Positions 15,794 to 21,580 of a stretch of 64,000 nt of DNA are shown piece by piece. The DNA comes from Escherichia coli (lineage in GTDB: Bacteria > Pseudomonadota > Gammaproteobacteria > Enterobacterales > Enterobacteriaceae): assembly GCF_050320075.1 (NCBI RefSeq), contig NZ_CP190018.1, one strand, 5' to 3'. The notes under the pieces are model-generated. The model did no database searches. It saw nothing but the letters and a program-made list of their open reading frames with translations, and was not told the origin of the DNA. The position numbers and the translations under genes are program-made. Numbering within the stretch: the first letter of the stretch is position 1; each line of letters begins with the position of its first letter.

Positions 15794-16012
15794 TTAGATG
15801 ATAAATGACAGCAGGAATGTGCCCGCCAGAGCGACGACTGAAGCGATAAATGTCGCTGTCGTATAGTATTTAAATGTTTCATTGAGCGTAGCGCCGCAAT
15901 ATTGCTTCGCCAGCCAGAAAAGCGAGTCCGTAACGATCGTGCAGCCAATCGCACCTGAACCGATAGCAATCGCAATAATTTCCGGGCTGATGTCGGGATA
16001 CAGCGGCAGCAC
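15794..16012 (-). pseudogene. dsdX: 3' remnant of dsdX (GntP-family D-serine permease), truncated by csc cluster
   Basis: About 72 codons encoding a GntP-family C-terminus directly upstream of dsdA; similarity ends at about 16012 where csc sequence begins; in-frame stop just upstream. Confidence 0.7.
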
Positions 16013-16254
16013 AATGATCCATATTTATATTTTCTTCTCCAGATTGGCGATGCCAGTTGGCATGTTTTACCTACTTGCCTACATGGTTACTCGTTGGCGA
16101 GAACAGAGGCGGAATTGGGTACAATTGTCCGGGAATTATTGTTATTTTTTATTGTATTGCCGTGTCGGGTGATAGGGCGTCGAGAATATCGTTGGATCTC
16201 GCCAGTGACGTCTGTTTCTGCTACAGTGCCCGTTTTACGGCAAACGGCTTGGGT

Positions 16255-17250
16255 ATGGCTTCATTAAAGGATGTCGCACGCCTGGCGGGAGTGTCGATGA
16301 TGACAGTCTCCCGGGTGATGCATAATGCAGAATCTGTGCGTCCTGCAACGCGTGATCGCGTATTGCAGGCAATCCAGACCCTGAATTATGTTCCTGATCT
16401 TTCCGCCCGTAAGATGCGCGCTCAAGGACGTAAGCCGTCGACTCTCGCCGTGCTGGCGCAGGACACTGCTACCACTCCTTTCTCTGTTGATATTCTGCTT
16501 GCCATTGAGCAAACCGCCAGCGAGTTCGGCTGGAATAGTTTTTTAATCAATATTTTTTCTGAAGATGACGCTGCCCGCGCGGCACGTCAGCTGCTTGCCC
16601 ACCGTCCGGATGGCATTATCTATACTACAATGGGGCTGCGACATATCACGCTGCCTGAGTCTCTGTATGGTGAAAATATTGTATTGGCGAACTGTGTGGC
16701 GGATGACCCAGCGTTACCCAGTTATATCCCTGATGATTACACTGCACAATATGAATCAACACAGCATTTGCTCGCGGCGGGCTATCGTCAACCGTTATGC
16801 TTCTGGCTACCGGAAAGTGCGTTGGCAACAGGGTATCGTCGGCAGGGATTTGAGCAGGCCTGGCGTGATGCTGGACGAGATCTGGCTGAGGTGAAACAAT
16901 TTCACATGGCAACAGGTGATGATCACTACACCGATCTCGCAAGTTTACTCAATGACCACTTCAAATCGGGCAAACCAGATTTTGATGTTCTGATATGTGG
17001 TAACGATCGCGCAGCCTTTGTGGCTTATCAGGTTCTTTTGGCGAAGGGGGTACGTATCCCGAAGGATGTCGCCGTAATGGGCTTTGATAATCTGGTTGGC
17101 GTCGGGCATCTGTTTTTACCGCCGCTGACCACAATTCAGCTTCCACATGACATTATCGGGCGGGAAGCTGCATTGCATATTATTGAAGGTCGTGAAGGGG
17201 GAAGAGTGACGCGGATCCCTTGCCCGCTGTTGATCCGTTGTTCCACCTGA
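16255..17250 (+). CDS. cscR: LacI-family sucrose operon repressor CscR
   Basis: Track ORF 16057..17250; start moved to in-frame ATG at 16255 (331 aa) where the LacI-type HTH begins (MASLKDVARLAGVSMMTVSRV). Confidence 0.9.
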   Translation: MASLKDVARLAGVSMMTVSRVMHNAESVRPATRDRVLQAIQTLNYVPDLSARKMRAQGRKPSTLAVLAQDTATTPFSVDILLAIEQTASEFGWNSFLINIFSEDDAARAARQLLAHRPDGIIYTTMGLRHITLPESLYGENIVLANCVADDPALPSYIPDDYTAQYESTQHLLAAGYRQPLCFWLPESALATGYRRQGFEQAWRDAGRDLAEVKQFHMATGDDHYTDLASLLNDHFKSGKPDFDVLICGNDRAAFVAYQVLLAKGVRIPKDVAVMGFDNLVGVGHLFLPPLTTIQLPHDIIGREAALHIIEGREGGRVTRIPCPLLIRCST

Positions 17251-17257
17251 TATTATG

Positions 17258-18906: not shown

Positions 18907-19830
18907 ATGTCAGCCAAAGTATGGGTTTTAGGGGATGCGGTCGTAGATCTCTTGCCAGAATCAGACGGGCGGCTACTGCCTTGTCCTGGCGGCGCGCCAG
19001 CTAACGTTGCGGTGGGAATCGCCAGATTAGGCGGAACAAGTGGGTTTATAGGTCGGGTCGGTGATGATCCTTTTGGTGCGTTAATGCAAAGAACGCTGCT
19101 AACTGAGGGTGTCGATATCACGTATCTGAAGCAAGATGAATGGCACCGGACATCCACGGTGCTTGTCGATCTGAACGATCAAGGAGAACGTTCATTTACG
19201 TTTATGGTCCGCCCCAGTGCCGATCTTTTTTTAGAGACGACAGACTTGCCCTGCTGGCGACATGCCGAATGGTTACATCTCTGTTCAATTGCGTTGTCTG
19301 CCGAGCCTTCGCGTACCAGCGCATTTACTGCGATGACGGCGATCCGGCATGCCGGAGGTTTTGTCAGCTTCGATCCCAATATTCGTGAAGATCTATGGCA
19401 AGACGAGCATTTGCTCCGCTTGTGTTTGCGGCAGGCGCTACAACTGGCGGATGTCGTCAAGCTCTCGGAAGAAGAATGGCGACTTATCAGTGGAAAAACA
19501 CAGAACGATCGGGATATATGCGCCCTGGCAAAAGAGTATGAGATCGCCATGCTGTTGGTGACTAAAGGTGCAGAAGGGGTGGTGGTCTGTTATCGAGGAC
19601 AAGTTCACCATTTTGCTGGAATGTCTGTGAATTGTGTCGATAGCACTGGGGCGGGAGATGCGTTCGTTGCCGGGTTACTCACAGGTCTGTCCTCTACGGG
19701 GTTATCTACAGATGAGAGAGAAATGCGACGAATTATCGATCTCGCTCAACGTTGCGGAGCGCTTGCAGTAACAGCGAAAGGGGCAATGACAGCGCTGCCA
19801 TGTCGACAAGAACTGGAAAGTGAGAAGTAA
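18907..19830 (+). CDS. cscK: fructokinase CscK (PfkB family)
   Basis: Track ORF 307 aa, ribokinase/pfkB fold with GAGD motif. Confidence 0.9.
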   Translation: MSAKVWVLGDAVVDLLPESDGRLLPCPGGAPANVAVGIARLGGTSGFIGRVGDDPFGALMQRTLLTEGVDITYLKQDEWHRTSTVLVDLNDQGERSFTFMVRPSADLFLETTDLPCWRHAEWLHLCSIALSAEPSRTSAFTAMTAIRHAGGFVSFDPNIREDLWQDEHLLRLCLRQALQLADVVKLSEEEWRLISGKTQNDRDICALAKEYEIAMLLVTKGAEGVVVCYRGQVHHFAGMSVNCVDSTGAGDAFVAGLLTGLSSTGLSTDEREMRRIIDLAQRCGALAVTAKGAMTALPCRQELESEK

Positions 19831-19891
19831 ACGGCGAGGCCGCTCTTATCTCTAAATAGGACATGAATTTTTTAACGACAGGCAGGTAATT

Positions 19892-21139
19892 ATGGCACTG
19901 AATATTCCATTCAGAAATGCGTACTATCGTTTTGCATCCAGTTACTCATTTCTCTTTTTTATTTCCTGGTCGCTGTGGTGGTCGTTATACGCTATTTGGC
20001 TGAAAGGACATCTAGGATTAACAGGGACGGAATTAGGTACACTTTATTCGGTCAACCAGTTTACCAGCATTCTATTTATGATGTTCTACGGCATCGTTCA
20101 GGATAAACTCGGTCTGAAGAAACCGCTCATCTGGTGTATGAGTTTCATTCTGGTCTTGACCGGACCGTTTATGATTTACGTTTATGAACCGTTACTGCAA
20201 AGCAATTTTTCTGTAGGTTTAATTCTGGGTGCGCTCTTTTTTGGCCTGGGTTATCTGGCGGGCTGCGGGTTGCTTGACAGCTTCACTGAAAAAATGGCGC
20301 GAAATTTTCATTTCGAATATGGAACAGCGCGCGCCTGGGGATCTTTTGGCTATGCTATTGGCGCGTTCTTTGCCGGCATATTTTTTAGTATCAGTCCCCA
20401 TATCAACTTCTGGTTGGTCTCGCTATTTGGCGCTGTATTTATGATGATCAACATGCGTTTTAAAGATAAGGATCACCAGTGCATAGCGGCGGATGCGGGA
20501 GGGGTAAAAAAAGAGGATTTTATCGCAGTTTTCAAGGATCGAAACTTCTGGGTTTTTGTCATATTTATTGTGGGGACGTGGTCTTTCTATAACATTTTTG
20601 ATCAACAACTCTTTCCTGTCTTTTATGCAGGTTTATTCGAATCACACGATGTAGGAACGCGCCTGTATGGTTATCTCAACTCATTCCAGGTGGTACTCGA
20701 AGCGCTGTGCATGGCGATCATTCCTTTCTTTGTGAATCGGGTAGGGCCAAAAAATGCATTACTTATCGGTGTTGTGATTATGGCGTTGCGTATCCTTTCC
20801 TGCGCGCTGTTCGTTAACCCCTGGATTATTTCATTAGTGAAGCTGTTACATGCCATTGAGGTTCCACTTTGTGTCATATCCGTCTTCAAATACAGCGTGG
20901 CAAACTTTGATAAGCGCCTGTCGTCGACGATCTTTCTGATTGGCTTTCAAATTGCCAGTTCGCTTGGGATTGTGCTGCTTTCAACGCCGACTGGGATACT
21001 CTTTGACCACGCAGGCTACCAGACAGTTTTCTTCGCAATTTCGGGTATTGTCTGCCTGATGTTGCTATTTGGCATTTTCTTCCTGAGTAAAAAACGCGAG
21101 CAAATAGTTATGGAAACGCCTGTACCTTCAGCAATATAG
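19892..21139 (+). CDS. cscB: sucrose:H+ symporter CscB (MFS, LacY-like)
   Basis: Track ORF 415 aa, 12-TMS oligosaccharide:H+ symporter family. Confidence 0.9.
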   Translation: MALNIPFRNAYYRFASSYSFLFFISWSLWWSLYAIWLKGHLGLTGTELGTLYSVNQFTSILFMMFYGIVQDKLGLKKPLIWCMSFILVLTGPFMIYVYEPLLQSNFSVGLILGALFFGLGYLAGCGLLDSFTEKMARNFHFEYGTARAWGSFGYAIGAFFAGIFFSISPHINFWLVSLFGAVFMMINMRFKDKDHQCIAADAGGVKKEDFIAVFKDRNFWVFVIFIVGTWSFYNIFDQQLFPVFYAGLFESHDVGTRLYGYLNSFQVVLEALCMAIIPFFVNRVGPKNALLIGVVIMALRILSCALFVNPWIISLVKLLHAIEVPLCVISVFKYSVANFDKRLSSTIFLIGFQIASSLGIVLLSTPTGILFDHAGYQTVFFAISGIVCLMLLFGIFFLSKKREQIVMETPVPSAI

Positions 21140-21580
21140 ACGTAAACTTTTTCCGGTTGTTGTCGATATCTCCATATCCCTCAACCGGAAAATAATAATA
21201 CAAAAATGCTTAGCCCAACTAATAATCACCTAATCCAAACGCCTCATTCATGTTCTGGTACAGTCGCTCAAATGTACTCCGGATACGCGGTTCGCTGATT
21301 TCCAGGACATTGTCGTCATTCAGCGACCTGTCCCGAGTATCACGGGCCTGCGAATTCATCAAGGAATGCATTGCAGAGTGAAGTATCGAGTCACGCCATA
21401 TTTCGCTATCAGGATTCTGTATGATGGTTACATCGCCCGGCCCAGGGCTGTTTAGTCATCAGCGCTTTCTGACAGTGCTGAGATTTCAACCTGTTGCAGT
21501 AAAAATGAGTAGATATAGGGCAAGTGTGCTGCCAAACCCATCTTTTACGGGGTGAAGGTAGATTTGGTTTGAAGGGTATC

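Follow-up and report, generated by a model that had tools for sequence, protein, structure and literature searches.

The csc regulon is said to have been located between argW and dsdA by Bockmann 1992, Jahreis 2002, and Moritz & Welch 2006, and the csc configuration, its D-serine-sensitive, sucrose-positive phenotype and a silent, orphaned dsdA are reportedly described in Jahreis 2002, Moritz & Welch 2006, and Connolly 2015. The locus exchanges D-serine catabolism for sucrose use. In attaching and effacing pathogens the exchange turns D-serine into a niche-restricting signal, through repression of type III secretion and toxicity to the cell. In Escherichia coli W the regulon was placed at argW-dsdA by Archer 2011 (PMC3032704), and the replacement of dsdC-dsdX by csc has been described in EHEC, in E. 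coli W and in the ECOR collection (PMC4366372, PMC3032704, PMC11251922). EHEC and E. coli W with the csc locus use sucrose, whereas D-serine inhibits them and does not support their growth (PMC3032704, PMC4366372, PMC7486766); O'Boyle 2020 (PMC7486766) describes dsdA as silent and D-serine as toxic in EHEC, and deletion mutants that express dsdA from cscAp.

Here we analyse the argW-dsd locus in a 64-kb stretch of E. coli DNA (the window). By mapping the junctions of the locus, comparing it with complete genomes and examining the constraint on its genes, we conclude that the window is almost certainly best described as carrying the csc allele, the common E. coli form of this locus. The configuration and its phenotypes are already established in the literature, and the case is real but ordinary: it places the strain in the csc+ half of E. 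coli, which is sucrose-positive and D-serine-sensitive, and nothing further. A mildly interesting residual question is why dsdA remains intact and constrained without its activator.

Layout of the locus and its junctions

The csc genes lie between dsdA and argW in the arrangement cscR> <cscA cscK> cscB> (Table 1). The junctions were located by a blastn comparison with E. coli B, in which argW-dsdC-dsdX-dsdA is intact. On the left, homology extends up to position 16011, inside dsdX; on the right it restarts at 21581, precisely where argW has its 3' end. The inserted 5,569 bp, which comprise the four csc genes together with the remains of a DUF4942 mobile-island gene, take the place of 2,368 bp present in E. 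coli B; dsdC and the dsdC-dsdX control region are missing relative to that strain, and dsdX lacks its first 1,120 bp. At the left end of the insert, positions 16012-16254 are 96.7% identical to the equivalent segment of O157:H7.

Table 1. Features of the argW-dsd locus in window coordinates
Feature	Position	Strand	Evidence or remark
dsdA, D-serine ammonia-lyase, 442 aa, full length, orphaned	14448..15776	-	ORF, NCBIfam TIGR02035
dsdX 3' remnant, pseudogene, final 72 codons	15794..16011/16012	-	NF007395, tblastn, blastn
Left end of insert, cscR upstream region	16012..16254		without homology to dsd locus
cscR, LacI-family repressor of csc genes, 331 aa	16255..17250	+	ORF, LacI-family matches over full length
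cscA, GH32 sucrose hydrolase (invertase), 477 aa	17258..18691	-	TIGR01322, RefSeq cscA
Divergent cscA / cscKB control region	18692..18906		two perfect palindromes
cscK, fructokinase, 307 aa	18907..19830	+	NF006957, 506.5 bits (cut-off 450)
cscB, sucrose:H+ symporter (MFS), 415 aa, Gln at position 353	19892..21139	+	TIGR00882
DUF4942 gene relic, N-terminal 60 codons, from CP4-like mobile island	21219..21401	-	PF13708
argW, tRNA-Arg(CCT)	21581..21655	-	ARAGORN, Rfam

The genes that remain or have been added appear complete, apart from the dsdX and DUF4942 remnants: the four csc products and DsdA all have family matches over their full length. DsdA reaches 811 bits, where the NCBIfam D-serine ammonia-lyase equivalog has a cut-off of 368, and is 99.1% identical to its E. 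coli B counterpart, with four substitutions. CscA reaches 477.4 bits (cut-off 356), and CscB 594.6 bits (cut-off 220) across all 415 aa. CscR scores under every NCBIfam cut-off, and no CscR-specific model exists in that collection; the cscR ortholog of strain 2c3, which occupies the equivalent position, bears the RefSeq name 'sucrose operon repressor CscR'. The dsdX remnant covers positions 374-445 of the 445-position DsdX profile, has 97% tblastn identity to DsdX 374-445, and appears in the RefSeq annotation as a pseudogene for partial DsdX.

Of the parts of a functional dsdCXA locus, DsdA is thus intact, while DsdC, full-length DsdX and the dsdX promoter are absent. In the whole 64-kb window DsdC gave no tblastn match and the replaced 2,368-bp segment no blastn match, and the closest genomes have a single dsdA-containing place each. 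An earlier sequence-only reading had seen the csc cluster as standing in for dsdC and most of dsdX, taken 15794-16012 for the dsdX 3' end, supposed that the locus had no intact dsdC-dsdX, and regarded dsdA as intact; the base-level junctions, the recovered DsdX residues, the empty searches and the DsdA score bear it out on all of these points.

Control of the csc genes is suggested by the cscA-cscK spacer, where perfect palindromic sites TGTTAACGTTAAC(T) occur at 18725-18738 and 18789-18802. The pattern has six matches at up to two mismatches (1.26 expected), and the four with zero or one mismatch all come from these two sites, each counted once per strand; the spacer is the only place where such operator candidates lie. 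The two TGTTAACGTTAAC palindromes are therefore candidate CscR operators, through which CscR would probably repress the divergent cscA and cscKB promoters. Sucrose would lift this repression, and CscB would import sucrose, CscA split it and CscK phosphorylate the resulting fructose.

Expression and maintenance of the orphaned dsdA

Lacking its activator and the operon promoter, dsdA would be transcribed at a low basal level only, leaving D-serine uncatabolised and growth-inhibitory; by analogy with EHEC, we infer this csc-locus phenotype for the present strain. The altered D-serine tolerance and the sucrose-positive phenotype that the sequence-only reading predicted are thus those already published for strains with this locus. 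In O'Boyle 2020 (PMC7486766), reporters of the wild-type arrangement show low basal dsdA expression, strong expression is recorded solely after deletions joining dsdA to cscAp or another upstream promoter, and CscR is not a direct repressor of dsdA. No CscR-type palindrome was found near dsdA or in 16012-16254, which agrees with the last of these findings. The sequence-only reading had offered two sources of dsdA transcription, a promoter in 16013-16254 or read-through. The former is not supported, as a strict consensus scan of both strands of 15700-19000 (which weak promoters could escape) found no sigma-70-like site; the latter is conceivable, but from cscA alone, because no other csc gene shares the dsdA strand. 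Deletions joining dsdA to the cscA promoter would offer an escape by reawakening the gene, which is possible because cscA is co-oriented with dsdA and no minus-strand intrinsic terminator is predicted between the cscA stop (17258) and the dsdX remnant (16012).

The same geometry bears on a different view of dsdA, which doubts that it is a dead or silent gene at all and holds that selection keeps it in about half of E. coli through expression under natural conditions. Expression would come most plausibly from the cscA promoter once sucrose inactivates CscR, reading through the terminator-free region antisense to cscR, or alternatively from a weak DsdC-independent promoter in the dsdX remnant; dsdA would be retained for the coupling, and D-serine detoxification would be gated by sucrose availability. 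A weak 'dsdAp' has been placed 115 bp upstream of the dsdA ATG (O'Boyle 2020, PMC7486766), a position that falls within the dsdX remnant. In EHEC mutants, derepression of cscAp together with a shorter gap gave a 33-fold induction of dsdA (PMC7486766). Further evidence comes from the constraint on the gene: in five csc+ alleles the orphaned dsdA has dN/dS of 0.02-0.16 at dS up to 0.06, on par with cscA and cscB, which fits poorly with a wholly useless, silent dsdA and points to purifying selection, so that the gene may be used in some condition. Against read-through, the wild-type cscAp-to-dsdA reporter fragment, cscR included, gave low fluorescence (PMC7486766), and a transcript would have to run for about 1.2 kb antisense to cscR, untranslated and head-on into cscR transcription, with Rho-dependent termination likely over that stretch. 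The constraint, too, could stem from repeated recombination with dsd+ alleles, as dsdA of the csc+ strain 'numer 3' has a dS of 0.019 from E. coli B and a larger one, 0.063, from the window. On balance we consider sucrose-conditioned expression of dsdA unlikely, and retain the reading of a csc allele with low basal dsdA expression.

Frequency and origin of the csc allele

The csc configuration is present in 2,646 of 5,426 complete E. coli genomes, and the alternative dsdC-dsdX segment in 2,698. The sequence-only reading was therefore right to call the arrangement known rather than new, as its publication also attests, but its wording, 'known from some E. coli lineages', understated the frequency.

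The right boundary of the inserted DNA coincides with the 3' end of argW, the sole match in an Rfam scan. Other elements that integrate at argW use positions 21581-21603 as their 23-bp att core, and in strain YZLc1-3 this repeat stands on both sides of an 8.8-kb integrase-bearing element; integration at argW is active, and this hotspot has received inserts of several kinds. The DUF4942 relic (E=1e-8, model positions 8-62 of 190) always accompanies the csc cluster: the 441-bp cscB-argW spacer was found in 2,623 genomes, and about 200 bp of it are some 73% identical to full-length DUF4942 genes elsewhere. Identification of this small ORF with Z3622 of O'Boyle 2020 was ruled out, since the 8-bp repeats of the LCV10B deletion place Z3622 at a 'recombinase family protein' gene carried by the argW element of O157 and absent from the window.

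Of the marks of a mobile tRNA-integrated island, neither an integrase nor flanking direct repeats were found: no integrase ORF lies between 16012 and 21580, and the argW 3' end has no second copy in the window at up to two mismatches, and none at the left junction. Neither junction has microhomology beyond the shared sequence. GC across the insert (0.44-0.53) is indistinguishable from the flanks, and the composition profile carries no island signature, such that the tRNA boundary and the DUF4942 relic are the only features that suggest a foreign origin. The insert is a fixed, immobile remnant. We hypothesize that a non-PTS sucrose regulon arrived as a block beside argW within a mobile element, that this element later decayed, losing its integrase and flanking repeats and leaving a fragment of its DUF4942 gene, and that a subsequent deletion or illegitimate recombination took out dsdC together with the DsdC-dependent promoter region and the initial 1,120 bp of dsdX.

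One breakpoint across distant lineages points to a single event. RefSeq annotates one and the same 219-nt dsdX pseudogene in all eight csc+ genomes examined, a recurrence that is not a chance pattern, and the window is collinear with O157:H7 over both junctions with just two small gaps. Repeated, independent origins of the csc configuration would be in keeping with a recombination hotspot that holds several different inserts, and with the diverse arrangements described in PMC11251922, including csc plus a retained dsdC; however, independent illegitimate events are not expected to reuse the same base, and we regard such origins as highly improbable. That the csc allele is ancestral and dsdC-dsdX was acquired by the other half of the species, as the nearly equal frequencies of the two alleles might allow, is scarcely credible, being already contradicted by a dsdX remnant in frame with DsdX residues 374-445 and derivable only from a complete dsdX, and opposed also by the relic of a mobile-element gene.

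Comparison with known systems

Relative to the intact dsdCXA locus of K-12, E. coli B and UPEC CFT073, dsdA and the 3'-terminal 218 bp of dsdX in the window are orthologous at 98% identity, and the flanking emrY and argW are likewise present, whereas dsdC, codons 1-373 of dsdX and the dsdC-dsdX control region are absent. The insert resembles CP4-type islands, and CPS-53/KpLE1 at argW in K-12, in having a boundary that coincides exactly with a tRNA gene's 3' end, and CP4-like islands in containing a DUF4942 gene fragment; it differs from tRNA-gene-associated islands in lacking an integrase, a repeat of the tRNA 3' end and a compositional signature.

O157:H7 and the closest relatives carry a prophage or integrative element at argW where the window has none, and the window lacks Z3622, the recombinase gene that supplied the promoter for dsdA rescue in one EHEC mutant (O'Boyle 2020). 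CscK has 307 aa in the window and 304 aa in the known csc regulon. The window is otherwise collinear with O157:H7 from 11448 to 21603, at 98.3% nucleotide identity across 10.2 kb, and shares its dsdX breakpoint; the four genes, their order, their orientation and their chromosomal site are the same as in the csc regulon of EC3132, E. coli W and O157:H7 EDL933.

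Replacement of dsdC and most of dsdX by the csc genes

As the intact reference we used the dsd locus of E. coli B (L002), in which argW, dsdC, dsdX and dsdA are contiguous. Aligned to it, the emrY-dsdA homology of the window ends at 16011 (locus position 3064, within dsdX) and restarts at 21581, the exact CCA end of argW. Between these points, 5,569 bp (16012-21580) stand in place of 2,368 bp of E. coli B (3065-5432). What was lost is all of dsdC, the 95-bp spacer that separates it from argW, the dsdC-dsdX control region, and the 5' 1,120 bp of dsdX. Neither a repeat of the argW 3' end nor microhomology was found at the junctions. 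Searches with DsdC (tblastn) and with the replaced segment (blastn) gave no match elsewhere in the 64-kb window. The sequence-only reading had proposed that csc genes replaced dsdC and most of dsdX, leaving a dsdX 3' remnant and a full-length dsdA; given the mapped junctions and the lack of any dsdC in the window, this structure is confirmed essentially to the base, and profile matches agree for both genes (see the table). DsdA differs from that of E. coli B at 4 of 442 residues.

Features of the argW-dsdA region and its flanks
Feature	Coordinates	Strand	Evidence
emrK	11639-12802	+	ORF list
emrY	12802-14340	+	ORF list
dsdA	14448-15776	-	442 aa; NCBIfam D-serine ammonia-lyase equivalog, 811 bits
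dsdX remnant	15794-16012	-	72-codon ORF; NCBIfam DsdX profile positions 374-445 of 445
cscR	16255-17250	+	LacI-family protein, full length (NCBIfam)
cscA	17258-18691	-	NCBIfam scrB family, 477 bits
cscK	18907-19830	+	NCBIfam fructokinase equivalog, 506.5 bits
cscB	19892-21139	+	NCBIfam oligosaccharide MFS, 595 bits
Small ORF, DUF4942 relic	21219-21401	-	ORF list
argW, tRNA-Arg(CCT)	21581-21655	-	tRNA scan
yfdC	21731-22663	-	ORF list
mlaA	22957-23712	+	ORF list

CscK varies in length at the 3' end of its gene (19800-19891): 307 aa in the window, PKF4 and GIMC1405, and 304 aa in O157:H7, HUSEC2011 and others. Farther out, between mlaA and fadL, a 423-aa ORF (23894-25165, minus strand) is a long, divergent yfdF allele that has no NCBIfam or Pfam match, aligns to K-12 yfdF in two pieces at ~91-92% identity, is at least 99% identical to only 145 records, and contains a motif (…DSNDTD…I…NQEPIK…) duplicated internally (x2).

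Distribution and origin of the csc allele

Of 5,426 complete E. coli genomes, 2,646 have the whole configuration (14448-21660) at a single place (megablast), and 2,698 have the replaced segment (dsdC and the 5' part of dsdX); together the two sets, each counted separately, amount to 98.5% of genomes, and the locus therefore looks like a near-binary polymorphism. O157:H7 strain G5295 is collinear with the window over 11448-21603 (98.3% identity, two small gaps). Because the same 219-nt partial dsdX is annotated identically (RefSeq) in every inspected genome with csc genes at this site (csc+), the evidence points to a single ancestral breakpoint.

The 441-bp cscB-argW spacer always accompanies the csc genes (2,623 genomes). 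In it lie the N-terminal ~60 codons of a DUF4942 gene, matched by Pfam at E=1e-8 over model positions 8-62 of 190. The full-length DUF4942 genes that E. coli carries elsewhere, in CP4-like islands, are ~73% identical to this stretch. This relic, and an insert that stops at the 3' end of the tRNA gene, suggest that csc may have been brought in by an argW-associated mobile element, since decayed; no integrase, att repeat or GC anomaly was found in the insert. Directly after the cscB stop lies a perfect 11-nt inverted repeat (TTTTCCGGTTG … CAACCGGAAAA; 22-nt spacer, 21149-21192), possibly the terminator of cscB, possibly a relic site.

The closest relatives over 14001-39000, YZLc1-3 and Ec-U3 (100% identity), carry an extra 8.8-kb element that separates the csc block from argW (7581-16400 of the relative's locus, L006). 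It lies between copies of a 23-bp argW 3'-end repeat, and its genes code for a tyrosine integrase, a rolling-circle replication protein, a Sll1717-family P-loop ATPase and a small recombinase; in the window the argW site (21581-21603) is unoccupied and the element is absent. Strain 746 is identical to the window from ~8.6 kb to 29.6 kb, a stretch that takes in the dsd-csc locus, and not elsewhere, and a recombination mosaic around argW is suggested. Relative to strain 746 the flanks (29601-64000 and 1-~1300), including the yfc-type fimbrial operon region, are SNP-dense or indel-shifted. Since these relatives each have only one dsdA-containing place, a second dsdCXA copy in the source genome is unlikely.

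Transcription of the csc genes and constraint on dsdA

In the cscA-cscK spacer the palindrome TGTTAACGTTAAC(T) occurs twice without mismatch, at 18725-18738 and at 18789-18802, and these sites are the obvious candidate CscR operators; the window has no other match to it at 0-1 mismatch, and none lies near dsdA. The stop codons of cscR and cscA converge 7 bp apart (17251-17257), neither strand carries a terminator-like hairpin there, and mutual antisense transcription or transcriptional interference between the two genes seems likely from this arrangement. A dsdA promoter in the 16013-16254 junction had been proposed as one option beside read-through; it did not emerge from a strict-consensus sigma-70 scan of 15700-19000, which returned 0 sites on both strands versus 4.5 expected. 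Of the csc genes, cscA alone shares the strand of dsdA, so read-through into dsdA must begin at the cscA promoter (cscAp) and cross cscR antisense; no terminator-like hairpin was found on the minus strand from the cscA stop (17258) to the dsdX remnant.

One alternative to a silent dsdA, to which we assign a low probability, is that the gene is conditionally expressed in the wild-type arrangement, for example by sucrose-induced read-through from cscAp. Among five csc+ alleles, a small sample in which recombination with intact (dsd+) alleles is possible, dsdA shows dS of 0.02-0.063 and dN/dS of 0.02-0.16, the same as cscA and cscB in those genomes, and the dsdA genes of the window and O157:H7 differ by 17 synonymous and 1 non-synonymous changes. 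Assuming that both lineages were csc+ throughout their divergence, a truly useless dsdA should not show such constraint; against this, the dsdA of one csc+ strain is nearer to that of E. coli B than to the window's.

Comparison with published D-serine and sucrose loci

According to published accounts, EDL933 carries cscBKAR in place of dsdC with dsdX truncated (PMC4366372, Connolly 2015; PMC7486766, O'Boyle 2020, citing Jahreis 2002 and Moritz & Welch 2006), and strains with this locus cannot use D-serine for growth, which it inhibits (PMC4366372, PMC7486766). PMC7486766 also calls dsdA a "silent enzyme", expressed at a low basal level and not directly repressed by CscR, and describes D-serine-tolerant mutants in which deletions place dsdA behind the z3622 promoter or, with CscR lost, behind cscAp. 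Placed via the 8-bp deletion repeats given there, z3622 corresponds to the recombinase gene in the element at argW of O157; it is absent from the window, so of the two routes only the cscAp fusion is available here. E. coli W has the same csc insertion (PMC3032704), and among ECOR strains csc is found in 35%, with slow sucrose use and D-serine use mutually exclusive (PMC11251922). The earlier interpretation is supported with minor refinements, including its view that the configuration is known rather than new: it is published, and roughly half of E. coli carries it.
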